A DNA stretch of 64,000 nt from Escherichia coli (GCF_011045215.1 NZ_CP049201.1), one strand, 5' to 3'; counted from the stretch's first letter, positions 3,238-17,983 are shown. A program made the numbers and translations. The notes: generated from the letters alone by a model not told the origin.

Positions 3238-3387
3238 AGATCAATAAGCACTTCTCTGATAGGCTCATACCGCTTTTGCGCAAAGCAGATGGGCCTGAGG
3301 TTTGCTTGTGACCCCAACGCATGAGCAGATGGCTGGCAGGTGCCGCTAACACCCACCAGCCGCCCATTACCACAAATTAAAAAGCCT

Positions 3388-3585: not shown

Positions 3586-3707
3586 GTCTTTTTCCCTATT
3601 CCGGTTAACGTGACATACCAATAACTCTTGTCTGAAAAGCCAGCAAGCTGAAAAACCGGTATTCGTAACCACCAGCGCGTTTAACGTACTGCACCACTTT
3701 TCGGGCA

Positions 3708-3730
3708 CAAAAAACCCGCCTAACGGCGAG
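3708..3730 (-). terminator. Minus-strand intrinsic terminator (candidate tR'-type site)
   Basis: Minus-sense CUCGCC-GUUA-GGCGGG hairpin followed by UUUUUUG. Confidence 0.5.
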
Positions 3731-3902
3731 CTTAAGCTGTGTAGCGAAGTAACCACTCTTAACACACTAAGCGAAAAAATGCGGACCGCGTTAGTGATTT
3801 TTAGCAAGTTTTGCTTTATTTTTCCTACGTACAGTAAAAATAAGAAATCAATTCCAGCCAGGCTGGCTGAGTTAACACAGGTCTTAGAATGAGGGAACTT
3901 CT

Positions 3903-4913
3903 TTGTACGAAATACATTACGACGTTGAGTCTGAACAGCAAGCTTTTGAATTACTTGAACGTTACCTAAACGGACAAGCTTTACCCGAAAAAATTAGTTT
4001 CAATGGTTGGCCAAGTCTAACCATCAGGTTGACTGGTGAAAAATTCAACAAATCACTCACACCTTCAGTTATGAAAGGATTTGTTGAAATGCAATCGCAA
4101 CTCAATAAGTCTTATGCGCTAGCAAAGTTCGGAACTCCTGATGTCCGCAGGCTAACAAAAGAAGAACTTGATGCTTTAGAAATTGAAGTTACAGTAGAGC
4201 AAGGTTCATCTCTTGTAGAGATTAACATTGATGGCTTCCTAAGCAAGCTTACGCACGAACTGGTAGGGAAAATGAACGCCACAGAGATTGTATTTACGGT
4301 TCTCGGTGCTGCCGTTATATGGGGCGGTGTAACCGTCTTCAAACGCTATCTGGATAACCGTAAAGATACTCGGTTGGCTGAAATTGCTAAAGAAGGCGAC
4401 AAAGAACACCTACGCGCAATGCAAGTGATGACACAGGAGGAAACAAAACGCCTCCAAATCATCTCAGAAATGGTGGCTAAAAAACCTCTACTCGACAATA
4501 TGGATCGAATGTCTTATGACGCTAAAACCACCATGGTTAAATCTTTCGTGCGTTCAGATTCAGCAGAAATTGACGGTGTCACAATAGATTCAGAAACGGC
4601 AAAAGAGCTAGTAACAAATGCTCGTCGACGCTCAGTTGAAATGAGAATAGACGGTATATACCGTATCGAAGAAGTGAATAATACCGACCCCGAAAGCTTC
4701 AAAGTTAAGGTTCGAAAGGTCGATTCTGATCAACGTTTGACCTGCGTTGTTCAGGATATATTCCTTGATGAATCAGGGAACAAAGAAGCCTTACAGCGAG
4801 CTGAATGGGAAAGAAAGCCTGTGCATTTAAGCATCAATGCCAAACACATTGATGGAGATATCAAGTCCGCCGTAATTTTACATGTGAAAGATGTTGAAGA
4901 TAAGCCCGAGTAA
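3903..4913 (+). CDS. Hypothetical 336-aa single-pass membrane protein, counter-oriented moron
   Basis: TTG start with GAGGGA (3891-3896) 6 nt upstream. One hydrophobic helix (IVFTVLGAAVIWGGVTVF) between two charged soluble regions. AT-rich. Opposite strand to all neighbours. Confidence 0.75.
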   Translation: MYEIHYDVESEQQAFELLERYLNGQALPEKISFNGWPSLTIRLTGEKFNKSLTPSVMKGFVEMQSQLNKSYALAKFGTPDVRRLTKEELDALEIEVTVEQGSSLVEINIDGFLSKLTHELVGKMNATEIVFTVLGAAVIWGGVTVFKRYLDNRKDTRLAEIAKEGDKEHLRAMQVMTQEETKRLQIISEMVAKKPLLDNMDRMSYDAKTTMVKSFVRSDSAEIDGVTIDSETAKELVTNARRRSVEMRIDGIYRIEEVNNTDPESFKVKVRKVDSDQRLTCVVQDIFLDESGNKEALQRAEWERKPVHLSINAKHIDGDIKSAVILHVKDVEDKPE

Positions 4914-4928
4914 TCGGGCTGTCTGGTT

Positions 4929-5309
4929 TCAAGATTCCACTTCGGCATCCATTTCTAAACTTACATCCAACATACTCAGGCAACCGTCGATAAACCCTTC
5001 AGCCATCTGTATCTCTATACGTATCAATTTCTCATCCTTCCAACGCGCCTTTGCAATCTTGCGCTTGGATATCCTGTATAAATAATGTGCCACAAGAAGC
5101 GAATGCTCATAAGGCCTTTTTTGCTTTAAACAAGCAAGACAACCTTCAATAATTAATGCGTCACTATCTGAACAAGCCAGGCGTTTCTTACTGGTATAGG
5201 GCAGAAGTCCCTTAAACCCGGCAGCTATAGGTGAATAGTCCACACCCGAGCTATCACTAGCCGCCCATGCCCCCCAACGCTCAAGAACCATCTGAATATC
5301 ACGCGCCAT
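4929..5309 (-). CDS. Late-gene antiterminator Q (DLP12 QuuD / phage-82 type)
   Basis: MARDIQMVLERWGAWAA...AAGFKGL...QMAEGFIDGCLSMLDVSLEMD matches QuuD as recalled. AGGTGG SD. Overlaps the rusA stop. Confidence 0.85.
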   Translation of the reverse strand: MARDIQMVLERWGAWAASDSSGVDYSPIAAGFKGLLPYTSKKRLACSDSDALIIEGCLACLKQKRPYEHSLLVAHYLYRISKRKIAKARWKDEKLIRIEIQMAEGFIDGCLSMLDVSLEMDAEVES

Positions 5310-5670
5310 CGTTACCACCTGTAATTTCGTAAATCTTCACACCCAGCCGACCACCAGGTACGCGCTGACCGCGCACAATATTAATTTCATCAAACTGCTC
5401 GTCGTCGATAAGCAACCCCGCATGTGTCAGTGCATCCAGTGGTGCTTTCAGAATATTGTCCAGGTCACGACGGCGCTTATCCGGTGGCTCTGCAGTAATT
5501 TTTATTGCCAGCCTTCCGGACAGATTTAATTTCAGCCGCTGCTGGCGAACAATGAGCGCCACATCACGGCGATAACGCTCACCGGCTTTTGATACAAAAT
5601 ATGTGCTGCCACGACGTCGCCAGTAGGTGTTTACCGTCGGCGGGTAAGGCAAAACAAACTCTATACGCAT
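5299..5670 (-). CDS. rusA: Holliday-junction resolvase RusA
   Basis: RusA family signature ...PPDKRRRDLDNILKAPLDALTHAGLLIDDEQ... Confidence 0.9.
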   Translation of the reverse strand: MRIEFVLPYPPTVNTYWRRRGSTYFVSKAGERYRRDVALIVRQQRLKLNLSGRLAIKITAEPPDKRRRDLDNILKAPLDALTHAGLLIDDEQFDEINIVRGQRVPGGRLGVKIYEITGGNDGA

Positions 5671-5682
5671 CAGTAACCTCTT

Positions 5683-6732
5683 TTACCCGAGCACGCCGGT
5701 TGCAAAGGCGTGATCAAGAAAACGAAAAATTAAATCAACCTGGGAACCATGCTTTTCTTCGAACGCCAGCGGATCCGCATGAAGTTCGTTGTGATGTTCC
5801 CGGCATAACGGTAGCGTGAAAATATCGTGGGATTTTGTTCCCATTCCGCCCTGACCATGACCAATCAGGTGATGGGGATCGTCGGCTGGCTTACCACAGC
5901 ACGCACACGGCTGTGTCTTTACCCAGCGTGTATATTTCTCATTTATCCAACGGCGACGTTTAGGTCGCTTCATGAAAGATTCCGGAGACTCCGGATCTAC
6001 GGCAATGCTGACCACCGTCTTTTCCTGTGGTGCGTTCTGTTGCTGGTGGGCGTGAGGTGGTAGCGCAATATTTTTTGTGCGCTGCTTCAGTATGCTGGTA
6101 GCTGTCTGCTCTCCCGGTACGATGTCGCTTTCGCGGTATACTGAGTGGATTTTTTCACCCGGAAGCTTCAGGATTCGACGCGCCATATTTTCGGTCATGG
6201 CATCCACTACATCATTTACAGCAGCCCAGCAGTACAGTTCAGCCAGCGATAATTCCCGCTCCTGTGTACCGCTTATTGCGTGACGTATGACGTCAATCAT
6301 CCAGGCTGTCAGATTTTGTTGAGCAAGCTGCCCGAGTGATTCGGAGGTCTGGTCACGCAGCTGGTTGTCGCAGTGCCAGCACAACACCATCGCGCCGGTG
6401 CCGTAACGATGTATGACGGTTTCACTGTGATGATAGTCACCATGAGGCCACTGGCAGGATTTGACATGACGCAACAGCCAGTCAGACAGTGCGCCAGCGC
6501 CGCCAGCAGCACGAATCACCCGCTCATCGCTGAAAAATGGCAGTAATGATTTATCTTCCGCCAGCGGCTGGCGAACAGCAGGAACAACTCCGAACGGCAG
6601 ACCGCGCATGCTTTTCGGTTCCGGTTCCACCAGCACTCGAGGGTTATGAAATACCTGCATGGATTCACGACCAGGCTTAAGGACCACCAGCCCGAGTTCC
6701 GGTACCGGAACAGGTCGAAGTAATACCCGCAC
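5683..6732 (-). CDS. DUF968-type phage protein (YdfU-like) with C-terminal HNH-like zinc motif
   Basis: C-terminus CACCGKPADDPHHLIGHG...LCREHHNELH. Sits upstream of rusA as in Qin/Rac-type prophages. Confidence 0.75.
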   Translation of the reverse strand: MRVLLRPVPVPELGLVVLKPGRESMQVFHNPRVLVEPEPKSMRGLPFGVVPAVRQPLAEDKSLLPFFSDERVIRAAGGAGALSDWLLRHVKSCQWPHGDYHHSETVIHRYGTGAMVLCWHCDNQLRDQTSESLGQLAQQNLTAWMIDVIRHAISGTQERELSLAELYCWAAVNDVVDAMTENMARRILKLPGEKIHSVYRESDIVPGEQTATSILKQRTKNIALPPHAHQQQNAPQEKTVVSIAVDPESPESFMKRPKRRRWINEKYTRWVKTQPCACCGKPADDPHHLIGHGQGGMGTKSHDIFTLPLCREHHNELHADPLAFEEKHGSQVDLIFRFLDHAFATGVLG

Positions 6733-6733
6733 G

Positions 6734-7006
6734 TTACCTCCAGATGCGTTGCTGGAATGTGCGGGATGGACGCGGTGGGCGTTCGGAATAAGGGAGCCTG
6801 ACTGAAATTATCCAGTGTCGGAAGTCAGGGCTGAGGTCTTTCTGAAACTCGTACCCACGTCTGCGGTAGTTCTGTATCAGCCATTCGGCCTGTTCTTCAG
6901 TGCAGGGGTCATGCTGATACCAGTCATATTTGAATGTGTGAGAACGCCGCCCGTATCTGCTGGCAGGGGCGGCATCAGAATTGTTAATTTTCTTGTAATG
7001 CACCAC
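6734..7006 (-). CDS. Hypothetical nin-region protein (90 aa)
   Basis: ORF tightly packed against the downstream DUF968 gene. No family recognised. Confidence 0.6.
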   Translation of the reverse strand: MVHYKKINNSDAAPASRYGRRSHTFKYDWYQHDPCTEEQAEWLIQNYRRRGYEFQKDLSPDFRHWIISVRLPYSERPPRPSRTFQQRIWR

Positions 7007-7072
7007 TACTATCCTCGTAATGGTGCGACAGACGCCAGTTGTTCAGGCTGGCTTTAACTACAACATTATAAT

Positions 7073-7267
7073 CTAGTCTTTCTTAATGCTGAAGTGACTG
7101 ACCGAATCCGCATGTGATTCTTTGGTGATCAGAATAACATCGGATGGCAATGGCATTACGATAAACTCACCATTCTCAAGAACTATTACTTCATAATTAC
7201 CTGGTATAGAAAGCGCAGCAATTAATTCCTTATCGTTCATAACCAAAATCCCGTGAACTTTAAACAC
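7073..7267 (-). CDS. Hypothetical small protein (64 aa, GTG start)
   Basis: AT-rich ORF. AAGGGGAG lies directly upstream of the GTG. A 12-bp palindrome ccccttaagggg (7271-7282) is adjacent. Confidence 0.4.
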   Translation of the reverse strand: MFKVHGILVMNDKELIAALSIPGNYEVIVLENGEFIVMPLPSDVILITKESHADSVSHFSIKKD

Positions 7268-7401
7268 CTCCCCTTAAGGGGACCATCCTTCTTCTCCCTG
7301 CGCGCCAATCAAGTAATGAGATTCTATTTCCCCCGTAATTAGCCTCAAGAACAACAAATCACAAAAACACAAAAAGCCTGTTTGATTAAAAATAATCGTA
7401 A

Positions 7402-7424
7402 CAAAAAACCCGCCGAAGCGGGTT
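7402..7424 (-). terminator. Terminator of the hok mRNA
   Basis: Minus-sense AACCCGCUUCGGCGGGUU hairpin followed by UUUUUU. Confidence 0.75.
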
Positions 7425-7492
7425 AAGTGCGGGTGCGTTGAGGATGCCTGACACATCAGAGGTGGCGAGGGATTTCTCCCCCGCCAGGTCTC

Positions 7493-7648
7493 TTACTCCT
7501 CAGATTCGTAAGCTGTGAAGACAGCGACCTCCGTCTGGCCGGTTCGGATTCGTACCTCGCAGAGGTCTTTCCTCATTACCAGTGCCGTCACTATGACGGT
7601 TAAACAGATGACGATCAGGGCGATTAACATCGCCTTTTGCTGCTTCAT
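7493..7648 (-). CDS. hok: Hok-family type I toxin (HokD/RelF-like, 51 aa)
   Basis: MKQQKAMLIALIVICLTVIVTALVMRKDLCEVRIRTGQTEVAVFTAYESEE is near-identical to HokD as recalled. Confidence 0.9.
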   Translation of the reverse strand: MKQQKAMLIALIVICLTVIVTALVMRKDLCEVRIRTGQTEVAVFTAYESEE

Positions 7649-7850
7649 AGCCTGCTTCTCCTTGCCTTTCGGCACGTAAGAGGCTAACCTACGTTTGTGT
7701 AGCATAGATTGGGCCTCAGATTAATGTTAAGCGTCTTGCCGGACGCGTAATGTTAACTGGGGCTTTTCTCTGTCTGCCTTACAGTGGCATGCCCGAGGCA
7801 GACAGCCTCAGGCACCCGCAACAATCTTACCGACACCGATAAGAAAACGC
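7649..7850 (-). promoter_or_regulatory. hok mRNA leader (mok region), expected to be overlapped by an antisense Sok-type RNA on the plus strand
   Basis: An in-frame upstream extension (mok-like) runs to 7705. Long-range inverted repeat ctgtctgcc/ggcagacag at about 7771-7815. Candidate plus-strand promoter TTGCCT-17-TAACCT at about 7661-7689. Exact Sok ends not determined. Confidence 0.45.
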
Positions 7851-7985
7851 TATTTTTTATTGCCAGAACCTTCTGCCCAGGCTAATGTATCCGCGTCAGA
7901 ACGGCGCAATGCGCTCGCCTGAGATACGTTTACTTGTCATTGGTGGCAACAGATAACGGCAATTGTTGTTTCTGTTTGTTTCCTT

Positions 7986-8018
7986 CAAAAACCCCGGACC
8001 ATCAATCCGGGGTTTTTG
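7986..8018. terminator. Bidirectional stem-loop terminator
   Basis: CCCCGGA-ccatcaa-TCCGGGG (7992-8012) flanked by an A-run and a T-run. Confidence 0.65.
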
Positions 8019-8022
8019 TTTG

Positions 8023-8106
8023 TTATCCCCAGCGGCAAATCGAATACACCATCAGCGCCACCGCCATCGCAATTCCTGCCGTTGTGAATGCTTCAGGCCA
8101 GGTCAT
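8023..8106 (-). CDS. Candidate 27-aa hydrophobic peptide, translationally coupled
   Basis: ATGA overlap with the stop of the 8103-8465 gene. Sequence [27 protein letters not shown]. Its stop lies 5 nt before the terminator hairpin. Below the ORF-track size cut-off. Confidence 0.35.
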
Positions 8107-8465
8107 CGTAAAATATCCTCCACGCTTATCAGTCCGTTTCGCTCCAGGTAGTCCATCACCTTATCCGGCAGTTTGCAGTCCGGCTTCGCTTTCCTCAGTT
8201 GCCAGGTTAACTGCTTTACCTGCATGGTTAACTCGTCGACCAGACGCTGATACCCCACTGGTTTGTATTCATAAAATTTACCAACTGGCGCTGCTGCCAG
8301 CGATTGCAGTGCAATTTCCAGAACAGCAATATCCATCTTATATGCGCGAATGAGGTCATGGTCGATTGTACCTGGTATGCACAGTCTCTGTGATTCAATA
8401 GTCTCCTCTGCGTGGGCTATTAACTGCTCTTTGGTAAACCGTTCTTCTTTGGTCAAAGTCGCCAT
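8103..8465 (-). CDS. Hypothetical nin-region protein (120 aa)
   Basis: ORF in a tightly packed minus-strand operon. No family recognised. Confidence 0.65.
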
Positions 8466-8466
8466 T

Positions 8467-8640
8467 TTATTCTTCCTCTTCGTCTTTTATTTCGTGATAT
8501 GAGTAATTGCAGTGATTAAAGAAAACATCAATTGCCTCGTTTTCTATTTCCTCAGGAATCGCGTCATCATCCACTTCAAATACATCTTCACGCACGCCAC
8601 CAACAATCCTCGTTTCGATAACTATTTTGAATTTTCGCAT
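8467..8640 (-). CDS. Hypothetical small acidic protein (57 aa)
   Basis: [57 protein letters not shown]. Its stop lies 1 nt before the next gene's ATG. Not in the ORF track (under 60 aa). Confidence 0.5.
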
Positions 8641-8730
8641 TGTCTTACCACCATTTCTGGCAGTCTCCTGATGTTCTGAGGGTGCAGAAATCCCTCCGGT
8701 TAAGGATTTTATTTTCGATAATAATATTGG

Positions 8731-9087
8731 TTATTCTGGTCTGGTTTTTGTCGCCCTGCGTATCCGCGCTTTCACATTGCGCTCAATCTGAATTAGCTTT
8801 TCTATATTTTTACGTCTTTCCCGTTCCTCCTGACGCAATTGTTTTACATCATCTGCCAGTCTGGTTTCTCTTTTCGCCACAGAGAGCATCCAGTCAAATG
8901 GCTCCACAACTGCACCGCAGATTTTACAACGGACCTGACGCTCTTTTTCATCAACCCTGACAGAGGCGTGATGGCAATATGGTTTCTCCGATGACTCATA
9001 AAGAAAATTAACCTGATTACGTGGGTCATCCTCTTTTACCGGAAATAAAACAATATTACTTAACTCATCTTCTGGTTTTATTTCCAC
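8731..9087 (-). CDS. Hypothetical zinc-ribbon/coiled-coil protein (118 aa, GTG start)
   Basis: AGGAG lies 6 nt upstream of the GTG at 9087, just after the upstream stop at 9089. Cys/His cluster CHH...CKIC followed by a basic coiled coil. Confidence 0.6.
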   Translation of the reverse strand: MEIKPEDELSNIVLFPVKEDDPRNQVNFLYESSEKPYCHHASVRVDEKERQVRCKICGAVVEPFDWMLSVAKRETRLADDVKQLRQEERERRKNIEKLIQIERNVKARIRRATKTRPE

Positions 9088-9088
9088 G

Positions 9089-9418
9089 TCACTCTCCTTT
9101 GATGCGAATACCTGCCACACGTAGTGCATGCTCCAAATCAGCCAGATAAAGCCAGCGTCCATGCTCTCTGGGCATCATGACATATTGCTCATCGGCATTT
9201 ATCGGATGACCCCTTCGAAGGTCATAGCAAGTCGGTAACTGCACTGTCCTTGCTTCCAGCTCTGCAATGCGTTTATCTCTGGCTTCCAGTTCGTCCAGTA
9301 ACGCCAGCACAACCTGCGGTGTGACTTTCATGCGAAACGCCAGCAGTTTCTGAGGTGTGGACACTGTTTTTATTGCCTCTGCCACATCACGCAACGCCTG
9401 GTTGTTAATCTGATTCAC
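9089..9418 (-). CDS. Hypothetical coiled-coil phage protein (109 aa)
   Basis: ORF with overlapping start/stop junctions to its neighbours. LLDELEARDKRIAELEAR coiled coil. Confidence 0.65.
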   Translation of the reverse strand: MNQINNQALRDVAEAIKTVSTPQKLLAFRMKVTPQVVLALLDELEARDKRIAELEARTVQLPTCYDLRRGHPINADEQYVMMPREHGRWLYLADLEHALRVAGIRIKGE

Positions 9419-9756
9419 TGCATCACCTCACGATTCCTCAACCAGATACAAACCGGTCCATCCTCGGTGTCATGAATGGAGCCAATAAACCAGCCCTCAC
9501 CCTCTGGTCGTTCAGGTTCCCATGCGGAAATATCGGGACCATCTGCATCCGGGTTAAAATCATCTTCATCCATACTGCGAATAGTCCACTGAAGATTATT
9601 TACCTTCATCCAGGCGTTAAATTCTTCCGTCGAAATATACTCCCGGCCATCACAAAATTTTTCATATTCAGGATGCGTCCAGCAGCCATATTCATCACGT
9701 TCTACCGGCAGTTCTTTGATTTCAATCAAAACATTAACTCCATTAAGATAATGCAA
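9415..9756 (-). CDS. Hypothetical phage protein (113 aa)
   Basis: ORF overlapping its neighbours by 4 and 14 nt. No family recognised. Confidence 0.6.
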   Translation of the reverse strand: MHYLNGVNVLIEIKELPVERDEYGCWTHPEYEKFCDGREYISTEEFNAWMKVNNLQWTIRSMDEDDFNPDADGPDISAWEPERPEGEGWFIGSIHDTEDGPVCIWLRNREVMQ

Positions 9757-9925
9757 AACAAATTAACCACACCACGACAACCGATGCTATTAACACCCTG
9801 ATTGCAAACAGCGGGCTGATATGTCGAAAAGGATTTTCCCAGATAATAAAAGCCGCTGCCAGAAATGCACTGATAAGTAAAACAATAACAAACAGCTCAA
9901 TTTTGATTATCCAGAACATATTCAC
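9743..9925 (-). CDS. Small two-helix membrane protein (60 aa)
   Basis: Strongly hydrophobic sequence. 4-nt overlap with the upstream gene. Confidence 0.5.
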   Translation of the reverse strand: MNMFWIIKIELFVIVLLISAFLAAAFIIWENPFRHISPLFAIRVLIASVVVVWLICFALS

Positions 9926-10212
9926 TGCATCGCCTTCTGTAAAATAACCGCATGCCCCAGCTTCTCCGCCAGCGCCAGTTCTGCCTTAGCACCCGCCGAC
10001 CGCTGCCAGCCATTCAGCATGTAAATCGCATCCACGCAACGTATCATCGCCATGCAGATATCCATGTACTGCGACTGAGTCAGTCCGTCCGGAAGTACTG
10101 CCGGGTTTAAGACGGTATGCCCTTCCCGTTTCAGTTCCTCTTCCGCTTTGTGAAACGCCTCACGGTTGAAGTTTTCATGGCCAGTCATCGGCCCTGCGAC
10201 ATAAACCTTCAT
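9922..10212 (-). CDS. DUF4406 / nucleoside 2-deoxyribosyltransferase-like protein
   Basis: MKVYVAGPMTG...NPA...GW..S.GA..E motif arrangement typical of the family as recalled. Confidence 0.65.
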   Translation of the reverse strand: MKVYVAGPMTGHENFNREAFHKAEEELKREGHTVLNPAVLPDGLTQSQYMDICMAMIRCVDAIYMLNGWQRSAGAKAELALAEKLGHAVILQKAMQ

Positions 10213-10643
10213 ATCGTTTTTACTGTCCCTTTATTGTCCCTGTAAAACATCAAAACCCGCTGCATAACATCGCTATTCCGGCACTCACGACAGATTATGT
10301 TCTGACGCCTGTCATAGCGGCGTATTTCTCCATCTGGTAATGAATAAATCAGGTCTGGGTCGCTCTTTTTCTTCGCTCTGTTTTTCTTCACTCCCCCTTT
10401 CGCGATCTTTTGGTGAGCCCTTTCCCAGTCCCTGTGCGCCTGCTCAGACGGAAATACCCCGTAGTCAGAGTTGTACACCTCACCGCTGGCAGCAAGCTCT
10501 CTGGATAAGCGACCGGTAGTGACTCTGCTGACACCCGTTTTATCTGCCAACTGCTGATGTGTTTCTCGCCCACTCTGGCGTACGAGCTCCACAATGCGCG
10601 CCTTCACTTCTTCCCGTTGTTCGTGTGTGAAAGGTTTTGCCAT
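10209..10643 (-). CDS. Putative HTH DNA-binding protein (144 aa)
   Basis: GGAGG lies 5 nt upstream of the ATG at 10643. HTH-like QQLADKTGVSRVTTGRLSREL. Confidence 0.65.
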   Translation of the reverse strand: MAKPFTHEQREEVKARIVELVRQSGRETHQQLADKTGVSRVTTGRLSRELAASGEVYNSDYGVFPSEQAHRDWERAHQKIAKGGVKKNRAKKKSDPDLIYSLPDGEIRRYDRRQNIICRECRNSDVMQRVLMFYRDNKGTVKTI

Positions 10644-10658
10644 AAGCGCCTCCGGCAA

Positions 10659-11429
10659 TCACTTTTCTGATGCAACACGGCGGGAAGAATCAGTCATCTG
10701 CCGGAAAATATCCCGGTGCTTGTTCAGCTCCCGCAGCGCAGCGCAGACACGTTCCCACTTCCGGATATGACTTTTTGCCCGGCGCAGTTCACGGTTTGCC
10801 ATATGTAGCGATGGCAGCATTACATAGTCGGTATGTTTTTCGGTGAACAATGGCAGTGACTGCACAATATCCGCCACCGTTTCTGTTTTAATTTCTTCCT
10901 GTGTTGCAACCTCCTGTACTGGTAACGCAACCCCCGCTGGCTGAGGAAAGGCTTTACCATCAGTTTCCGCTACCGATGCGGCTTTCAGTTCTGCTGGTAA
11001 ATTCTCGCCTGGCATGCAGTAACGAAATTTACCGTTCTGATTAACGCGTGCCAGTCGCCCTGTTGAGGTTACTACCGCCAGCGTGGAAGCAACCTTGCGA
11101 ATGCTGACACCGAACTTACCCGCCAGTTCCTCACACGTTTTAGCCCCCTCCTGGCCGATAAACTCAATCATCATGTCAGCGGTAACTTTTTGTTCGCCCA
11201 CCCCGGTTAGCACATCCGGTGCTTCAGATTGTACTGGCTGCTCTTCGGTTACCCCGGATTCACCTTCGCCAGCCAGAAACCAGGTGTGGCCAGTTTTATC
11301 AACGACGCCATTTCTTTTGAGTTCCCACAGCTCGTTCAGAACTTCTTCACGACTGATTTCAAGTCGTGCGACCAGTTCCACCGACGTGGCTTTTCCCATT
11401 GCTTTCAGTGCATCAAAAACGGTCTCCAT
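10659..11429 (-). CDS. Hypothetical phage protein (256 aa), possibly DUF1627-like with N-terminal winged helices
   Basis: ORF downstream of the DnaC-like gene. Family assignment is from memory only. Confidence 0.7.
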
Positions 11430-11468
11430 TAAAATTTCCTCCCGGTAAAATTATTTCTCAATTCCTGG

Positions 11469-12197
11469 CTAACCAACATTTGAACGCCAGCTCTCCCAGT
11501 TAAAATTCACCCAGCGACCACCGTTCATGGTCATGCGGTCCATCACGCGCTCGCCAAGCAGCGTATTCATTGCCGTATGGTTCAGGTTCGTCAGCATCCC
11601 GACGCTGTGCATCGAGGCTGTTCTGCGATCGACTATCTGGTTCAGTGTGACCTGTTCGTTACGCGTATCCCGCTGCATACCAATTTCATCCAGGACAAGC
11701 AGGTCAACTTCACACAACCCCTGCAAAAATTTTTCGCCCGAGTTTTTGTTGTCGTAGTTGCCGTGTAACGCCAGCATCACATCCGCCACCGTCACCACAA
11801 TCACGCTGCGACCTTTCGCCAGAAGATGGTTGCCAATGGCTGCTGCCAGATGATTCTTTCCGGTACCCGGCTTACCGCTGAACACGAAATTTGTGCATCC
11901 GGTCATCATTTCTTCCGCGATGGATTTTGCCTGGCTCAGCGCGTGGCGTTGGCCATCGTTCTTCACCTGGTAATTCGCAAACGAACACTTCTGGTGCAAC
12001 AGTTGGATACCGGAACGCTTCATAATTTTCTCCACCCGGATCTGGCGATTCTGGCGGTTAATTTCCTCACTACGCTTTCGCCCTTCTGCAAGCTGCCACT
12101 CTCGCCACTCGTCCACTGTCCGGTACGGCGCGGTTACATGCTGCGGGGCCAGCTTACGGATACGCTCAAGAACACCACCTGCCGCAATATTTTTCAT
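11469..12197 (-). CDS. DnaC-like replication helicase loader (lambda P analogue, YdaV-like)
   Basis: Walker A GKPGTGKNHLAAAIG and Walker B LLVLDEIG. Confidence 0.9.
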   Translation of the reverse strand: MKNIAAGGVLERIRKLAPQHVTAPYRTVDEWREWQLAEGRKRSEEINRQNRQIRVEKIMKRSGIQLLHQKCSFANYQVKNDGQRHALSQAKSIAEEMMTGCTNFVFSGKPGTGKNHLAAAIGNHLLAKGRSVIVVTVADVMLALHGNYDNKNSGEKFLQGLCEVDLLVLDEIGMQRDTRNEQVTLNQIVDRRTASMHSVGMLTNLNHTAMNTLLGERVMDRMTMNGGRWVNFNWESWRSNVG

Positions 12198-12203
12198 AAC
12201 CCG

Positions 12204-13313
12204 TTACCCCCTGAATCCCGGCGGAATTTCGGTATCCGGTTCAGAAATATGATTCACACAACGCTGGTTGTTCGTGCCGCTTACCGGGAGCAACCAGGGG
12301 TTTTCAAAATTCCGGTCCGGTCCAAAAAACGTCGTCGCTCGCTGAACAAATTCCGTTCCCGCTTTCCCGGTCGCCGCCAGGTATCTCGCGTAACGCCTCA
12401 CACCATCCAGCATGGTCTCTGGTGGCACCCCCTCGCGCAATCTGGCCTTCCAGGCACTGAATGCGGATTTCTTCGGGTTTGCCCCGGCACGCAACGGGTA
12501 TTCCCGCCAGACCTGTTCGAACACATCCGGATAATCCACTCGTCCCACAGGCCGCCCGGTGTTTTCCGGGACTACCCGATCGGCTTCCCGCTGAATGGCG
12601 GAATCGGCTTCAGGCTGCTGCAGTTGGTGTGATTGCTCCGACCCTGCGGTCATCACCTGCTGCACAGCGCCCGAATCGGTTTTCAGCGCATACGCCGAAT
12701 CGGCTTCCGGTGTCGTGCCTGCTGGCTGACCAGAATTTACGGTCTGAACATCCCCTGCCTGGTTCGTGGTGTTTTTTTCGCCATGAGCTATAGTGTTTTT
12801 GTCCTGTTCTTTCTCCTGCTCCTGTTCCTGTTCTTGGCTTCGAAGCCCCTTAAAAGCCCCTTCGAAGCCCCTTACCGAATTTCGGCTATTATTCCGCCTC
12901 ACATCCAGATGGAAATCCGTTTTATATCTGTCGTAAAACGCTGACAGAAAAGCGTTTTCAGGTAATGATGCATACTCATTCCTGACACCTGCACAACGGT
13001 TATCGCCAGGCTTCAACGTTTCCCCAACCTGCCAGGCTGCCATTTCATGGACCCAGACCATCTCGGCATCATGGTCATAGCTACAAAAACCAGCTTCAAC
13101 AGCCCTTTTAAGCCCCTTTGAAGCCCCTTCCAGACCAAGCCCGGTTTCATGAGCAAGGTATAAAACTGGCAGGTAATACAAACCCAGCATATTTGCGTGA
13201 GGGGATGTCATCAGGTAAAAAGCAACAACTTGCGCTTCTGCACCCGCCTTTCTAAGTTCTCTCCCCGTTTCTCCCAGCCAGAATCGCGGAGAAACTTTTG
13301 CGTAATCACGCAT
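12204..13313 (-). CDS. Replication initiator (O analogue; YdaU/DUF1376-like N-terminus)
   Basis: MRDYAKVSPRFWLGETG... start with a GAGG SD. Sits upstream of the dnaC-like gene. Contains iteron-like repeats. Confidence 0.8.
   Translation of the reverse strand: MRDYAKVSPRFWLGETGRELRKAGAEAQVVAFYLMTSPHANMLGLYYLPVLYLAHETGLGLEGASKGLKRAVEAGFCSYDHDAEMVWVHEMAAWQVGETLKPGDNRCAGVRNEYASLPENAFLSAFYDRYKTDFHLDVRRNNSRNSVRGFEGAFKGLRSQEQEQEQEKEQDKNTIAHGEKNTTNQAGDVQTVNSGQPAGTTPEADSAYALKTDSGAVQQVMTAGSEQSHQLQQPEADSAIQREADRVVPENTGRPVGRVDYPDVFEQVWREYPLRAGANPKKSAFSAWKARLREGVPPETMLDGVRRYARYLAATGKAGTEFVQRATTFFGPDRNFENPWLLPVSGTNNQRCVNHISEPDTEIPPGFRG
12843..12873. repeat. Three AAGCCCCTT repeats at 11-bp spacing (candidate origin iterons, cluster 1)
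   Basis: Exact 9-mers start at 12843, 12854 and 12865, inside the O-like gene next to a low-complexity (QE)n-coding tract. Confidence 0.5.
13099..13129. repeat. Three AAGCCCCTT-type repeats at 11-bp spacing (candidate iterons, cluster 2)
   Basis: Exact 9-mers at 13110 and 13121 plus a degenerate copy at about 13100. Lies 256 bp from cluster 1. Confidence 0.5.
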
Positions 13314-13391
13314 GGCTACCTCATCTGGTGCCGAACCTTCCTCCGGATATAATCTGTGGTTCCCAATCGACAGAACCAGAGGAGGTTCGAC

Positions 13392-13847
13392 ATGTATTTT
13401 TTGAAAAGCCTTTATCAGGCTCATGTATTAAATGTTGCAGCAACAAACCGCTGGTGTAACAGCCCCGAAATGCTCCCGGATTACAGAGCCTGGCTGCGCG
13501 CCGAAACATACCTTCGTCTCGACATATTGATTAGCGAACTTCAAAAAGAGACTGCATCCATTCATAACCTTCAGGGTATCGACGCTGTTCGCATTCTGGT
13601 ATCGCGCCATAGTGCTCTCTCAATAATTGAAGTGCGTCATCTCTCTTTTTCTGAACTGATTTTCTTGCTTCAACCAGCTCTGGAATCAGCGAATATCCCA
13701 CCGAAAGTGATCCAATACCCACCTCATGTTGACGAGCAGTTACAAGATGTGCCATACAACCAGCGTGCTGGATTGACTCCCTGCTCAGAGGCTGAATGGG
13801 ATCACTCTCTGCTGAAGAAATACCAAGATTTGTATAATCCTCAATAA
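13392..13847 (+). CDS. Hypothetical 151-aa protein, counter-oriented within the early-right operon
   Basis: ATG preceded by GAGGAGG (13379-13385) with a 6-nt spacer. Perfect TATAAT at 13348-13353. Hairpin at 13894-13929 downstream. Overlaps a minus-strand ORF. Confidence 0.5.
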   Translation: MYFLKSLYQAHVLNVAATNRWCNSPEMLPDYRAWLRAETYLRLDILISELQKETASIHNLQGIDAVRILVSRHSALSIIEVRHLSFSELIFLLQPALESANIPPKVIQYPPHVDEQLQDVPYNQRAGLTPCSEAEWDHSLLKKYQDLYNPQ

Positions 13848-14040
13848 GCCCGGCACACGCTTCTGCATCAGCCAGCTTTATTCTGGTTTCCTTGCGCTGC
13901 TCTCTGGCTGACAAACGCCAGAGCAGCGCATTAGCTTTATGTATCAACCACTCTGCCAGCTCCACATCAGATAAACCGCCACGCCAGATGTGCGGACTGT
14001 TTTCGTAAACGCTCAGTGTCAATTTTTTGTCATTACTCAT
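13531..14040 (-). CDS. Hypothetical 169-aa ORF between the CII-like and O-like genes (may be a shadow of 13392-13847)
   Basis: Co-oriented with the operon, starts MSNDKKLTLSVYENSPHIW. Weak SD. Contains a 13-15 bp inverted repeat. Shares 317 bp with the plus-strand ORF. Confidence 0.4.
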   Translation of the reverse strand: MSNDKKLTLSVYENSPHIWRGGLSDVELAEWLIHKANALLWRLSAREQRKETRIKLADAEACAGLIEDYTNLGISSAESDPIQPLSRESIQHAGCMAHLVTARQHEVGIGSLSVGYSLIPELVEARKSVQKKRDDALQLLREHYGAIPECEQRRYPEGYEWMQSLFEVR

Positions 14041-14053
14041 ATTTATTACCCAA

Positions 14054-14479
14054 TTAATGCACAGCCAGAGTGTTTCCTGCCGGGCCACCACGATTCATCT
14101 GATCGAACAGAACGATCGCTGATGCAACGAAATCATCAATATCTTTCACCAGCCGTTCCTTCGTCTCTACCAACTCCCGAAAATAAGCGGAACTGTGGCT
14201 GCGCATTCGGGCCACCAGCGGAGGCGGCATTGCTTTTTCGATCGCTGGTAACAACGCCTGAATTTTTTTAACCGCATCAGGGGTGTCTTTATCCAGCCAA
14301 CGGAAAATTTTCTGGGTATTACGAGCCAGCGCTTCCGGATGCCTGTCGTCATATAGCTCCGGGAACGTCATACCCAGCTCAAAATAAGCCTGGGTTATTT
14401 CAGCTGCCGGAACTTTTTCACCGTCCGGATGCGCCCAGGCATTCATCGCCATACGGATGTGTTCATGCTTGATTTTCAT
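14054..14479 (-). CDS. YdaT-type (CII-like) regulator
   Basis: MKIKHEHI... N-terminus and length resemble Rac YdaT as recalled. Follows the Cro-like gene. Confidence 0.8.
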   Translation of the reverse strand: MKIKHEHIRMAMNAWAHPDGEKVPAAEITQAYFELGMTFPELYDDRHPEALARNTQKIFRWLDKDTPDAVKKIQALLPAIEKAMPPPLVARMRSHSSAYFRELVETKERLVKDIDDFVASAIVLFDQMNRGGPAGNTLAVH

Positions 14480-14738
14480 GAATCAACTCCGGTGTATTTG
14501 GTGTGTTAGCCTTATCTCCAGCAGGCAACCCGTCAGTTGGATTCGGGTATAAATCTGGTCGCAATTCATGAGGAGTCACCCCAGTTGCAATATAAATTTG
14601 ACGAACCCGTTCCCCCGTCGGAACTCGACCATTGTATTCATTTGCCCATTTGTGTATTTGAGATGGCCAAGCCCCTATTGCACGCCCTAGTGGACGAATA
14701 CCACCAGCAATCTTTATTGCTTTGTCCAATGCTGTCAT
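14463..14738 (-). CDS. Cro-like repressor (YdaS/DUF1019 type)
   Basis: HTH protein divergent from the repressor gene. MTALDKAIKIAGGIRPLGRAIG... Confidence 0.8.
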   Translation of the reverse strand: MTALDKAIKIAGGIRPLGRAIGAWPSQIHKWANEYNGRVPTGERVRQIYIATGVTPHELRPDLYPNPTDGLPAGDKANTPNTPELIHENQA

Positions 14739-14766
14739 ACAACCTCCAGTTCAACTAATCATAACA

Positions 14767-14835
14767 ATTGTTCACTTAAAACGAACATAAGTCAACACCT
14801 CGAGGAATTGTTAGTGTTCACTGAACGGTTATAAT
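14767..14835. promoter_or_regulatory. Divergent immunity promoters and operators
   Basis: Minus strand: TTGACT (14790-14795) -17- AACAAT (14767-14772). Plus strand: TTGTTA (14808-14813) -16- TATAAT (14830-14835). Operator-like TGTTC-N9-GAACA at 14769-14787 and tgttcact at 14815-14822. Confidence 0.6.
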
Positions 14836-14841
14836 TGCTAA

Positions 14842-15231
14842 ATGGACATGAGAAAAAAGCAATACGACACCCCGCTAGCAGAAAGGTTAGATGCGATCTC
14901 TCAACAGCATCATTTAAGTGGTTCAGATTTAGCGCGTATCGCTGGTGTAGGTCGTTCATCAGTCAACGCATGGAAAAAAAGAGGAACAATCAGTAAAGAT
15001 TCCGCAGCCAAAATTGCAGAAGCCACAAACGTTTCCCTTTCTTGGCTACTGACAGGGAAAGAAGAGACAAATAGAGAAGCGCTTGATGATGACGAGAAGG
15101 CCCTGCTTGATGTTTACAGAAACCTGCCACCTGTAGAACGTAGAAATATGCTGGCAGCTTTTCAAATGCGACTTCAAAAACTGACCGAATTTTACTCAGA
15201 ATACGTCGACCCAATAACACGACAAAAATAA
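14842..15231 (+). CDS. Prophage repressor, DicA-like (XRE HTH, no S24 peptidase domain)
   Basis: HTH LSGSDLARIAGVGRSSVNAWKKRG plus a C-terminal ALLDVYRNLPPVERRN segment like that of DicA. The ATG lies 7 nt after the TATAAT, suggesting a leaderless mRNA. Confidence 0.85.
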   Translation: MDMRKKQYDTPLAERLDAISQQHHLSGSDLARIAGVGRSSVNAWKKRGTISKDSAAKIAEATNVSLSWLLTGKEETNREALDDDEKALLDVYRNLPPVERRNMLAAFQMRLQKLTEFYSEYVDPITRQK

Positions 15232-15252
15232 TTCTTTATTTTACAGAATCAT

Positions 15253-15276
15253 ACCGCCGCAAGGCGGTTTTTTTTA
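15253..15276 (+). terminator. Rho-independent terminator after the repressor gene
   Basis: ACCGCC-gcaa-GGCGGT hairpin followed by TTTTTTTT. Confidence 0.85.
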
Positions 15277-15296
15277 CCTTTTACGTATTCATAATG

Positions 15297-15325
15297 TTGA
15301 CTTTTGTTCACCCAAAGAGAACAAT
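15297..15325 (+). promoter_or_regulatory. PdicB-like early-left promoter with overlapping operator
   Basis: TTGACT (15297-15302) -17- AACAAT (15320-15325), the same hexamers as the Cro-side promoter. Operator TGTTC-N9-GAACA at 15305-15323. Confidence 0.6.
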
Positions 15326-15399
15326 GTATTCCATCAAAGCACAACGGTGCGACAGGTCTTAGTTCCGCTACCCCGGCGTTAAGGGGAAATGAGGTCAAC

Positions 15400-15555
15400 A
15401 TGGATACTATCGATCTTGGCAACAACGAATCTCTGGTATACGGCGTGTTCCCCAACCAGGACGGCACGTTCACCGCCATGACGTATACCAAAAGCAAAAC
15501 GTTTAAAACCGAATCTGGCGCGCGTCGCTGGCTGGAAAGAAACTCAGGTGAGTGA
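15400..15555 (+). CDS. ydfA: YdfA/YdaF homologue (51 aa)
   Basis: MDTIDLGNNESLVYGVFPNQDGTFTAMTYTKSKTFKTESGARRWLERNSGE is near-identical to K-12 YdfA as recalled. Confidence 0.85.
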   Translation: MDTIDLGNNESLVYGVFPNQDGTFTAMTYTKSKTFKTESGARRWLERNSGE

Positions 15556-15556
15556 T

Positions 15557-15685
15557 ATGGATTTCGACACAATCATGGAAAAGGCTTACGAAGAATACTT
15601 CGAAGGCCTTGCCGAAGGCGAAGAAGCTCTCAGCTTCAGCGAATTTAAACAGGCGCTTTCCAGTTCGGTAAAATCTAACGGCTGA
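15557..15685 (+). CDS. ydfB: YdfB/YdaG homologue (42 aa)
   Basis: MDFDTIMEKAYEEYFEGLAEGEEALSFSEFKQALSSSVKSNG. Not in the ORF track (under 60 aa). Confidence 0.8.
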   Translation: MDFDTIMEKAYEEYFEGLAEGEEALSFSEFKQALSSSVKSNG

Positions 15686-15714
15686 TAAGCGAAGCGGCAC
15701 CGCGAGGAATCAGT

Positions 15715-15933
15715 ATGCAGAAACGAGAACCCCTCATCATCGCACCAGACTATACCGATGATGAACTTTATGAGTGGATGCGCGGGAAGATACGCGCCAT
15801 TAATGACCTGAAGCAGGCCACTGACCACAAAGAGCGCCTCTCTGAAACACTGACGTCAGTGACGCAGGATATTATCGCTCTGGCAAAAAGCGCGGCATTA
15901 AACGTTTCGCGACCGGTAAAAACAACTGACTAA
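15715..15933 (+). CDS. ydfC: YdfC homologue (72 aa)
   Basis: MQKREPLIIAPDYTDDELYEWMR... resembles K-12 YdfC as recalled. Confidence 0.75.
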   Translation: MQKREPLIIAPDYTDDELYEWMRGKIRAINDLKQATDHKERLSETLTSVTQDIIALAKSAALNVSRPVKTTD

Positions 15934-15944
15934 TGAGGTTAACC

Positions 15945-16103
15945 ATGAATGAGGCAGAACTGAGACACGTTATAGCATTGCTTCTGGAAGATGCAAAACG
16001 TCTACATGAACTGGAACCAAATGCAGGCACAGGGGCCCGTATTTTGTTAGCAAAAAAATGTCTTGCTTCACAAGTGGTAAAAGCAACTGAACAGCGAGGT
16101 TAA
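15945..16103 (+). CDS. Hypothetical small protein (52 aa)
   Basis: MNEAELRHVIALLLEDAKRLHELEPNAGTGARILLAKKCLASQVVKATEQRG. GAGG SD. Its stop overlaps the next start (TAATG). Confidence 0.5.
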   Translation: MNEAELRHVIALLLEDAKRLHELEPNAGTGARILLAKKCLASQVVKATEQRG

Positions 16104-16741
16104 TGATGGAATTTAAAGATTTACCGCTATCAATCCAGGGGATTGCAGCACACACACTACGTCAACGTCTGAACGAAGCTATGGCTGAATCTGCAACGAA
16201 AGAAACCATTGATAACATGGCTCGTAATGTGCACGATGCGTTTACCGGATTGTATTTCTGTGCGTCTGTAAATAAACACGACCCAGAGAGTGTGGCAAAG
16301 AAAATTGCAGAAACGACAGTGCAAAACATCAATACGAAACCAACCGAAGACGAAATTGACCAGCCTGCCAGTGAACAAAAGAAAGAAAAATCGCCATATG
16401 CGGGGAACATGTTTGTTTATGACAAACTTATCCGAATTCGTGGCGAAATTCCGACTGAATACCTGGCAAAAATTCACCAGGCATTACTTAAAAATCTGGA
16501 AACGGAAGTATTTGATGGCAACACCAACGGCTCCTTCGTGGTGTCAGCCCTCACAAAAGAATGGGATACAGATAATCGCCGGAATGTTGCTACATGGTTA
16601 TTCAGCAACAAAGCTGCTGCCCTGGAAGCTGCGGCCTGTATTTGCGACCTGCTAAGGACAGACCGCAAATACAACCTGGATGTGTATAGCTATATTTATG
16701 CTGAACACTATCCACTCTGGATTGACTGGTTTAAAGGGTAA
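16103..16741 (+). CDS. Hypothetical early protein (212 aa)
   Basis: ORF coupled to the upstream small ORF. No family recognised. Confidence 0.7.
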   Translation: MMEFKDLPLSIQGIAAHTLRQRLNEAMAESATKETIDNMARNVHDAFTGLYFCASVNKHDPESVAKKIAETTVQNINTKPTEDEIDQPASEQKKEKSPYAGNMFVYDKLIRIRGEIPTEYLAKIHQALLKNLETEVFDGNTNGSFVVSALTKEWDTDNRRNVATWLFSNKAAALEAAACICDLLRTDRKYNLDVYSYIYAEHYPLWIDWFKG

Positions 16742-16903
16742 CACCTGCGGGACCGAGCCGACCAGCACCACGATTATTTTATCCTCCATTAAGGGGTGAA
16801 TTAAAAATGGAGACCAACACGCTGCTACGTGTGGTCGTGCGCCGGACACGGATAACCTTCCGGCATGCTCTTTAACAATCTGGATATCCACAACAGCAAT
16901 AAC

Positions 16904-17422
16904 CTACGGATTGCTGCTCAATGCTCTACCTATCTCTTCTTCAGATGGGGGCGGTATATAGTCATCATTGCGTTCAAATTTAAAGCGCGAATCACATTTC
17001 AGGCATTTAGAAATATGGAACTTATCATGCTCACCAATTTCAACAGGTTGAAGTATTGCTATTACACCATGCTGATAGCAATTGGGACAGGCATAGTGAA
17101 AACATGTGTCTTCTTCGTCGAGGCTGTTCCTGAAAGCATAGACAAAATGCCCAAAACCAGTTTTGTGTATCGTATAGCATTCAAGTTTTCGATTACGCTC
17201 GTCAATTTCATGACATTTTTACTTAAGCAAGAGTATTTCCTCGTACTGAAGCGCGAGCGTTTTCGCTAGCTCTGCGTTCTGTATTTGTAAGTCTGCCAGT
17301 TGGCGACGCATTTCGTAGACAGCCTTTTCACGTTCAGATTGGCTTTTTGCATCAAGTATTACCTGTAATAAATCAATCGAGACTTTAATTGCCGTTATTG
17401 ATGAAGTTATTCCAGATAGCAT
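16904..17422 (-). pseudogene. Counter-oriented coiled-coil + zinc-ribbon gene interrupted by one in-frame TAA (17219-17221)
   Basis: A 67-aa ORF (17222-17422, MLSGITSS...EEILLLK) is followed in the same frame by 104 stop-free codons lacking any ATG/GTG/TTG (KCHEIDE...CFHYACPNC...KCLKCDS...SSNP). TATAAT (complement of 17454-17459) lies upstream. Confidence 0.55.
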
Positions 17423-17731
17423 TCTTAACTCTCTTTGTTGTTGGGGTATCCGGATTATACAAAATTCTTGTTGTTGGGGAACAACAGGAACCACCTCGCC
17501 TGATGTGGTTAAAAGCAGGCACACAACACGAAAGCGCACGGCGAAGGTTTCTTTTCCTTAGAAGGCTTGTCGTTAGATTTCTTCGGCCGTGCGCTTCCGG
17601 TTGTGGCAATCCGCGAAATGGCGCGGCGGTAAGTATGGCGGGGTTATCCTTACCCCCACTGGTAGCACCGGGTTGTCAGGTTGACCATACGCTTAAGTGA
17701 CAACCCCGCTACAACATCTCCATGTTGAGGC

Positions 17732-17787
17732 TTGTGTGAGACCTTTGGCGGCATCAGTTTAATTGCTGGCTGATGTCCGCCCTTTTT
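17732..17787 (+). ncRNA. dicF: DicF sRNA homologue (ftsZ-targeting)
   Basis: ...TTTGGCGGcATCAGTTT...CTGATgtCCGCCCTTTTT matches the core and terminator of K-12 DicF as recalled. Sits upstream of the dicB homologue. The 5' end is approximate. Confidence 0.8.
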
Positions 17788-17983
17788 AAAGTGAATTTTG
17801 TGATGTGGTGAATGCGGCTAAGCGCACGCGGAACAGTTAAAAGACCATTTGTTCTCCGTATCAATACTTATGGGTAGGTACTTGCAGGCGGGTCCCTGTA
17901 TTCCGGCGTTAATTGTTAACTGGTTAACGTCACCTGGAGGCACCAGGCACCGCATCACAAAATTCATTGTTGAGGACGCGATA

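Follow-up and report, generated by a model that had tools for sequence, protein, structure and literature searches.

We analyzed a 64,000-nucleotide stretch of an Escherichia coli genome (GCF_011045215.1, NZ_CP049201.1), referred to here as the window. From position 1 to approximately 22,400, the window contains the right-hand part of a lambdoid prophage (dicA/ydaS/ydaT/dicB type), which adjoins ompW. The chromosome beside it, with ompW, tonB, and yciA, matches E. coli genomes at 99.4% identity. The best coverage of positions 3000-19000 by any of 5426 complete E. coli genomes was 67% or less, and this mosaic is thus absent from the complete E. coli genome collection. An initial annotation of the window had described three open reading frames (ORFs) that run counter to the lytic transcription units. 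All three are present: cassette A (3903-4913, plus strand, 336 amino acids [aa]), cassette B (13392-13847, plus strand, 151 aa), and cassette C (17422-16904, minus strand, 172 codons). The most valuable outcome of the analysis was comparative evidence for a long conserved antisense pair, formed by B and a gene on the opposite strand that we call anti-B (13531-14040, minus strand, 169 aa) and that is absent from the RefSeq annotations examined.

Cassette B and its antisense partner

B begins with an ATG at 13392 and its stop codon ends at 13847. The perfect -10 element and strong Shine-Dalgarno (SD) sequence initially reported for it are both there: TATAAT occupies 13348-13353, and GGAGG lies at 13381-13385, 6 nucleotides (nt) before the ATG. 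The putative promoter and leader (13325-13391, plus strand) consist of TGGTGCCGAACC, TATAAT, and AACAGAACCAGAGGAGGTTCGAC, followed by the ATG. After TGGTGCCGAACC and the -10 element, the leader consensus AACAGAACCrrAGGAGGTTCGAC-ATG is near-invariant in most lineages, whatever the upstream gene; Salmonella lineages carry TGnTAGCCT instead of TATAAT. In most lineages, the promoter and leader are conserved more strongly than the B coding sequence. A hairpin around the SD sequence was no more stable than in shuffled sequence. An O-like gene model overlapping the start of B was dropped; relatives start the O-like gene at the ATG at 13313, leaving a 78-nt intergenic promoter region.

The B protein belongs to the ECs1072 family (NCBIfam NF033230), with a score of 104.6 bits (E = 4.6e-30) over 139 of 142 model positions, against a curated whole-protein cut-off of 70 bits. 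All three cassettes had been described as being of unknown family. This holds for A (phrog_6191) and C (phrog_1244), both of unknown function, but B falls in a family that is named, if uncharacterized. B has no PHROG family. It is an all-alpha protein with a confident model fold, invariant motifs, a conserved SD sequence and ATG, and purifying selection on the protein sequence. Its DNA was found in 454 of the 5426 complete E. coli genomes (about 8%), including that of O157:H7 Sakai. A scan of GTDB representative genomes with the B alignment found no relative, and our literature search found no functional study of ECs1072, ECs_5703, NF033230, WP_000273724, or phrog_8304.

anti-B starts with an ATG 13 nt past the stop codon of the ydaT-like gene and is co-oriented with the early-right operon. 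It matches phrog_8304 from end to end (E = 4e-119). The family comprises about 23 clusters at 50% identity, with conserved motifs that include LTVFKNSPHIWAGGLEG.ELA.WL and LGLS.KE.DPIHPLS. In the RefSeq relatives examined, among them O157:H7 Sakai, B is annotated and anti-B is omitted, with a 207-nt gap where anti-B begins; a 169-aa gene conserved across many lineages has thus been dropped. We attribute the omission to its overlap with a gene of the ECs1072 family on the other strand, which is supported by a hidden Markov model (HMM). In Sakai (locus L054), between ECs_1071 and ECs_1073, the tag ECs_1072 is gone, the gene opposite anti-B is tagged ECs_5703, and anti-B is unannotated.

B and anti-B overlap by 317 nt (13531-13847), which span B codons 47 to 151 and anti-B codons 65 to 169. 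Codon position 1 of one frame lies opposite position 1 of the other, and positions 2 and 3 lie opposite each other. B had been presented as a cassette; its counter-orientation in the early-right operon was borne out, but it is half of a conserved antisense pair and not a simple insertion.

We counted substitutions by codon position across the collected diverged B loci. With the window as the reference, the 46 codons exclusive to B carried 17, 11, and 29 substitutions at positions 1, 2, and 3 relative to locus L005 and 14, 7, and 30 relative to L045. The 64 codons exclusive to anti-B, read in the minus frame, gave 17, 13, and 37 (window versus L005), 24, 20, and 40 (window versus L045), and 2, 0, and 12 (L047 versus L008). 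Both exclusive parts therefore display the third-position excess of coding sequence. Conversely, the counts were flat over 103 codons of the overlap where both ORFs are present (36, 30, and 38, window versus L005). The third-position rate fell there from approximately 0.6 to between 0.3 and 0.4 in both frames (Fisher P values of 4e-5 to 5e-3). The Salmonella locus L006 has neither an anti-B ORF nor homology to anti-B. Comparison of the window with L006 over the same stretch of B gave 52, 41, and 68 substitutions, a normal single-gene pattern, and the third-position rate of the B overlap was 0.67 in this comparison versus 0.37 where anti-B is present. On these substitution patterns, B and anti-B are both coding, and the 317-nt overlap codes on both strands.

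The pairing is also old. Nine lineages hold both ORFs intact in the same relative frame, with overlaps of 209 to 317 nt, down to 27-34% identity. All three remote anti-B members for which DNA was available (27-33% identical) carry an ORF of the B family on the opposite strand (HMM E values of 3e-27 to 7e-35). A shuffle test among synonymous codons, used to ask whether an open opposite frame is being maintained, gave only moderate values, 0.003 to 0.44 per lineage; as the lineages are not independent, this lends weak support. A simplified OLGenie-like classification of substitutions had little power, owing to the absence of doubly synonymous sites in this frame relation, and its L005 rows, mis-registered by 3 nt, were set aside.

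A tblastn search of 50,697 phage records with anti-B returned no match; in the collections searched, the module was seen only in prophages and viral contigs. It occupies the ydaT-O junction beside three different replication genes, lies beside a repressor gene, and occurs in Salmonella prophages with Cox and integrase genes. This variety of contexts indicates that B and anti-B travel as a mobile unit. In L060 (332-571), a remote B/anti-B module lies a few genes downstream, in the orientation of anti-B, of an Acb2/Tad1-like anti-defense gene.

The antisense genes known from O157:H7 are reportedly for the most part evolutionarily young, lie within an older gene, and have expression data behind them. 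B and anti-B differ from these in that they overlap partly and convergently, each has its own family, and their support is comparative, from lineages at 27-89% identity. Genes such as ano, asa, pop, and laoB are, like the present pair, protein-coding ORFs antisense to annotated genes, with one partner dropped by annotation pipelines (e.g., PMC7103648, PMC5810103).

How the B/anti-B module may be expressed

While the early-right promoter pR is repressed, only the B promoter could fire, and B alone would be transcribed. Upon induction, transcription from pR would yield anti-B and would collide head-on with B transcription. In addition, the two mRNAs would be able to pair over about 300 nt. Polymerase collision and sense/antisense pairing would together be expected to make the expression of B and anti-B reciprocal. 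We infer promoter activity, lysogen expression, transcriptional interference, and any defense function; by analogy, expression in the lysogen and silencing by interference are plausible, with precedent. If expressed in this way, the locus would offer a clean natural case for long antisense dual coding together with life-cycle-coupled reciprocal expression.

The precedent is the Tha/Ith system of Staphylococcus aureus phage 80alpha, a noncontiguous operon whose antisense architecture was shown experimentally to make lysogenic and lytic expression mutually exclusive (PMC11087260). As in Tha/Ith, B is nested antisense in a phage operon with its own promoter motifs, and the coding sequences overlap. 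The polarity, however, is the opposite one: the 80alpha operon is that of cI, active in lysogeny, and the inhibitor made in the lytic phase is the product of the nested gene. Moreover, B and anti-B have no homology to Tha and Ith, no HEPN domain, and no Pfam or PADLOC match, which excludes homology only and not a similar action. Their overlap is also long (105 codons) and is kept down to about 28% identity.

By analogy, B and anti-B could form an effector/antagonist pair coupled to the phage life cycle. B would act in the lysogen, e.g., against superinfecting phages, and anti-B, made from pR, would neutralize B after induction or infection, with antisense transcription rendering the two states mutually exclusive. 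We regard this as a possible but rather unlikely function. It fits the nesting of B within an operon under its own conserved promoter, the constraint on both overlapping coding sequences, the joint movement of the two genes between contexts (ydaT-O junction, repressor neighbor, and Salmonella prophage with Cox and integrase), and the experimental precedent for the architecture. It fits poorly with the lack of resemblance of either protein to a known defense protein, toxin, or inhibitor, and with the loci where one gene stands without the other: L006 and L007 have B without anti-B, and L001 has a B pseudogene with anti-B intact, from which we conclude that the genes are not strictly interdependent. 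We give the same low credence to the fuller proposal that B/anti-B is an ancient mobile module in which the off or on state of pR alone picks the protein, a lysogen-phase effector or its lytic-phase antagonist. If true, lambdoid phages of Gram-negative hosts would possess in this module a counterpart of the Tha/Ith autoimmunity switch, and few long antisense dual-coding regions in bacteria would have better comparative support.

Alternatively, the B promoter may mainly drive a regulatory transcript. Without termination, a B RNA would cross anti-B, the cII-like ydaT gene, and the cro-like gene in antisense and then enter the dicA-like repressor gene, which lies on the strand of B. Its main function would be in the lysis-lysogeny decision, with the B protein in a secondary role. 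In phage lambda, the oop RNA lies between cII and O. The position of B is that of oop, and the transcript would be an analogue of oop or of that from pRE. Furthermore, B points to the repressor gene in the window and in L008, L047, and L059, our scan found no strong plus-strand terminator between 13847 and the repressor gene, and the leader and promoter of B are more conserved than its coding sequence. Against this, the B protein is under clear purifying selection and has a confident model fold. In L046, B is convergent with the repressor gene, Salmonella contexts place B kilobases away from it, and the approximately 1 kb of read-through is a pure supposition. This alternative seems to us slightly less probable still than the effector/antagonist pair.

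Cassettes A and C

Cassette A starts with a TTG at 3903, preceded by the SD-like sequence GAGGGA (3891-3896), and ends at 4913. It belongs to phrog_6191 (E = 8e-143), and no match was found in Pfam, NCBIfam, or PADLOC. Its homologues form 82 clusters of proteins of about 336 aa at 33-94% identity, all named "hypothetical," in Escherichia, Salmonella, Enterobacter, Klebsiella, Serratia, Pantoea, Erwinia, Yersinia, and Cronobacter. The AlphaFold2 model, built with 41 sequences (predicted local distance difference test [pLDDT], 86.5; predicted template modeling score [pTM], 0.85), has an N-terminal alpha/beta domain, long helices, and a C-terminal OB-fold-like beta-barrel. Residues 126 to 141, approximately, form a strongly hydrophobic helix, and the consensus retains TVLGxAxIWGG. 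We infer membrane anchoring and a role for the OB-fold domain. Full-length A-type DNA was found in 85 of the 5426 complete E. coli genomes, at 77% nucleotide identity, and L003 and L004 carry A in differing prophage backbones.

The initial annotation had placed this gene inside the late transcription unit. The gene is real, but it lies between the gene for the Q antiterminator and the block at about 3803-3709, which probably contains the late promoter. In E. coli, Enterobacter, and Pantoea, A is always convergent with a small Q gene (PF06530), the stop codons are 14 to 24 nt apart, and the late genes come next. In the window, a stable hairpin at 4903-4920 lies in the 15-nt gap between the two stop codons and overlaps the stop codon of A, with fold energies of -16.2 and -12.5 kcal/mol (z of about -4.5). 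This hairpin is a candidate bidirectional terminator.

On the other side of A, a block reading AAAAATCACTAACGCGGTCCGCA...TA.TGTGTTAAGAGTGG (about 3803-3755, minus strand) is conserved from Pantoea to E. coli. It is noncoding, lies between the 5' flank of A and the next late gene, and is followed by one or two intrinsic terminators. We assign 3709-3803 (minus strand, oriented away from A) as the probable late promoter pR' with the qut region, followed by the terminator tR'. The pR' candidate has TAGTGT as a -10 element at 3769-3764, with a further -10-like TAAGAG at 3761-3756; tR' would be the intrinsic terminator with a stem at 3730-3715 and a U-run at 3714-3709. More than 200 phage records contain sequence homologous to the distal part of the block. 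In Shigella phage Ss-VASD, the homologous sequence immediately follows an annotated "putative late promoter PR'," and in phage PA-2, a homologue of window positions 3764-3710 lies between the divergent porin gene lc and the lysis genes.

Since A is upstream of this promoter and terminator block, it lies outside the late transcript. Late transcription would start beyond A and run away from it and would therefore never cross it. Hence, the claim that all three cassettes face oncoming lytic transcription fails for A. At most, read-through from Q could meet A head-on, and the hairpin at 4903-4920 stands between the two stop codons. The region upstream of A (3808-3902, plus strand) is weakly conserved among A-carrying prophages. 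Between pR' and the start of A lies a near-perfect palindrome, CAGCCAG-G-CTGGCTG (about 3854-3870), which could be an operator or a small hairpin and is not kept in the 77%-identical relatives.

The slot of A has known occupants. As with lc of PA-2 and nmpC of the DLP12 prophage, A sits between Q and the late block, convergent with Q and divergent from the late regulatory block. Unlike lc and nmpC, which encode OmpC-family porins, A has no porin domain and no signal peptide and has instead one hydrophobic helix and an OB-like domain. In Salmonella L049 and L050 (5001-5999), an A homologue with 59% identity directly follows, and is co-oriented with, a cI-like repressor gene; this prophage is very common, and the protein is indexed in 466 collection blocks. 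The position downstream of cI is a lysogen-expressed defense hotspot that holds the abortive-infection genes rexAB and bstA (PMC8585504). The Salmonella homologue thus resembles rexAB of lambda and bstA of BTP1 in place and orientation. A nevertheless lacks similarity to the RexA, RexB, and BstA models (PADLOC, Pfam), and the copy in the window is at the Q-pR' slot. Its position alone makes A a good candidate for an exclusion, abortive-infection, or conversion protein that is most likely made in the lysogen; in its sequence and fold we found nothing that confirms an exclusion or abortive-infection role. Its occurrence in both slots makes A, a widespread, confidently folding, and uncharacterized protein found at two classical lysogen-expressed hotspots, a well-motivated candidate for a new prophage exclusion or defense function.

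Cassette C starts with an ATG at 17422 and encodes a coiled-coil N terminus and a CPNC...CLKC zinc ribbon; phrog_1244 is a small family. These features were recognized initially, as was the perfect TATAAT (17459-17454, minus strand), which lies 31 nt upstream of the ATG and was not reported by our consensus scan. For the -35 element there is a single, weak candidate (TTGTTC, 19-nt spacer). The gene is not intact, however. An in-frame TAA (17221-17219) follows codon 67, and 104 in-frame residues, including CPNC...CLKC, lie beyond it. Over 859 nt, strain C5 shows 99.3% identity and carries CAA in place of this TAA, a difference of a single C-to-T change on the coding strand, which identifies the copy in the window as a truncated nonsense allele. 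C is therefore inactivated here, and only a 67-aa N-terminal fragment can be made. Other assemblies also have the truncated allele. Intact proteins of 172 aa are encoded in E. coli and in Salmonella (89% identity in the latter). Full-length C DNA was found in 2 of the 5426 complete E. coli genomes. Between the 212-aa gene of the early-left unit and dicB, the loci L001, L008, L047, and Sakai Sp4 have small, unrelated genes, likewise counter-oriented, which marks this interval as a variable cargo slot.

These data also bear on the view that the counter-oriented ORFs are chance frames or annotation artifacts and that only the genes co-oriented with the operons are real. PHROGs call the ORF opposite B and have no family for B, C is interrupted, and A has a TTG start and no detectable promoter. 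Nevertheless, full-length homologues of A, at 33-94% identity, occur in many genera, and its fold is modeled with confidence. For B, there are a substitution pattern typical of coding sequence, motifs without variation, an SD sequence and ATG that are conserved, a curated model in NCBIfam, and likewise a confidently modeled fold. Relatives have an intact C, as does Salmonella at 89% identity. The comparative data already refute the artifact view for A and B; for C, only the functionality of this copy is refuted. Overall, we deem it highly improbable.

Accessory cargo in a lambdoid prophage

Morons, the accessory cassettes of prophages (PMC3594210), are recognized by presence or absence among related phages, by base composition, by a promoter and a terminator of their own, and by expression in the repressed prophage. 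In L001, L002, L008, L047, and Sakai, the cassette slots hold other genes. The GC content is 41.5% for A and 40.2% for C versus 48% for the prophage; the description of all three as AT-rich therefore suits these two, and B, at 45.0%, is only marginally lower. The cassettes, present in 85 (A), 454 (B), and 2 (C) of the 5426 genomes and replaced by unrelated genes in the slots of relatives, are accessory and not core lytic genes, in keeping with the initial proposal.

The proposal that the cassettes do not act as one system was also upheld. Their only joint feature is their presence, all counter-oriented, in this one prophage, which would be what a multigene system spread over the prophage predicts. 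On the other hand, they do not co-occur elsewhere. Strain C5 has B and C, with a MazF gene and a helix-turn-helix (HTH) gene in the A slot, A of L003 and L004 sits in different backbones, and Salmonella and Pantoea contexts contain one cassette alone. The differences in frequency and backbone indicate that A, B, and C are independent; cooperation as one system is already contradicted, and we consider it the least probable of the alternatives.

The pattern at the scale of the window is the known lambdoid architecture of morons and conversion genes, of which the cargo proteins here are uncharacterized members. The lambda record places sieB on the plus strand, amid the leftward genes of the pL unit, and bor on the minus strand, amid the rightward late genes; it carries no annotation for oop. 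With sieB, oop, and bor, each of the three lytic units of lambda has one counter-oriented, independently transcribed element. In DLP12, nmpC, borD, ybcV, and ylcI are counter-oriented. Because lambda and DLP12 share this geometry, the pattern is not special to the present prophage; as a textbook arrangement, it adds little. The elements themselves differ: A, B, and C share neither sequence nor fold with SieB and Bor, B is a 151-aa protein gene whereas oop is a 77-nt RNA, and A lies before pR' whereas bor is inside the late operon.

Taken together, the results lead us to favor, with some reserve, a joint reading of three independent accessory units in habitual lambdoid slots: A in the Q-pR' gap, the B/anti-B module, and an inactivated C. 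Several observations count against it. PADLOC-DB v2.0 (E of 0.01 or less) gave no match for A, B, anti-B, or C, and no PADLOC, Pfam, or structural match ties A, B, or C to a known defense or conversion function. A consensus scan found no sigma-70 promoter upstream of A, B and C have poor -35 elements despite their perfect -10 elements, and no intrinsic terminator was found after B or C. The hairpin at 4903-4920 has weak U-tails on both strands, and the identity of pR' rests on homology to a promoter annotated as "putative." One Salmonella lineage (L006/L007) has B without anti-B, and in L001 (strain OkiPb01716, 12748-13203), the B pseudogene bears W34stop in the invariant AWLRAE motif beside an intact anti-B. 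Finally, the only trace of B expression in the literature is a microarray signal for ECs1072 in uninduced Sakai, whose strand and ORF assignment is uncertain because the current Sakai annotation uses the new tag ECs_5703. Overall, the initial observation was partly confirmed, and its interpretation is partly supported.

We mapped the region from the ORF listing, family scans, and annotated relatives. On the minus strand, the late side comprises lysis genes (below about 1700), a tRNA (1902-1972; tRNA-Gly in the annotation of the relative L001) between the late-region holin genes and a DNA methyltransferase gene (2191-3237), and a 65-aa gene (3388-3585). Beyond A follow, also on the minus strand, the gene for the small Q-type antiterminator (4929-5318, about 126-129 aa; PF06530 was found on neighboring Q genes), RusA (5299-5670), DUF968 (5683-6732), the hok/sok module (7493-7817), a DnaC-like gene (11469-12197), and the O-like gene (12204-13313). 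B and anti-B are followed by the ydaT-like gene (14054-14479) and the cro/ydaS-like gene (14463-14738) on the minus strand and by the dicA/cI-like repressor gene (14842-15231) on the plus strand. The early-left unit, on the plus strand, includes the 212-aa gene (16103-16741), a RecE-like exonuclease gene (18450-20885) preceded by dicB and a DUF1482 gene, and the integrase gene (21176-22306) preceded by xis. The sequence at 17465-17850, upstream of dicB, recurs in conserved form in thousands of E. coli genomes, among them that of K-12 with its Qin prophage; Rfam detected no DicF or other small RNA in the dicB region at the gathering score.

The hok/sok module, a further autonomous cargo unit in the nin-like part of the early-right region, is of the type I toxin-antitoxin kind (PF01848, E = 2e-22; NCBIfam Hok; Rfam sok, 109 bits), and the Rfam sok match falls on the same strand as hok. 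An 80-aa plus-strand ORF (6815-7057) matches phrog_2734 (E = 4e-28) and overlaps, in antisense, a 90-aa gene (6734-7006, minus strand) that is annotated in relatives; this may be a second strand conflict or a second overlapping pair. The count of exactly one cassette per lytic unit, as first stated, cannot be upheld, since the window covers only about 3.8 kb of the late unit, A lies outside that unit, and the early-right unit also contains hok/sok and the ORF at 6815-7057. Just upstream of hok/sok in this unit, a 13-bp perfect hairpin between an A-run and a T-run (7986-8018) is a predicted strong bidirectional terminator, and the early-right genes downstream would accordingly need antitermination or promoters of their own.

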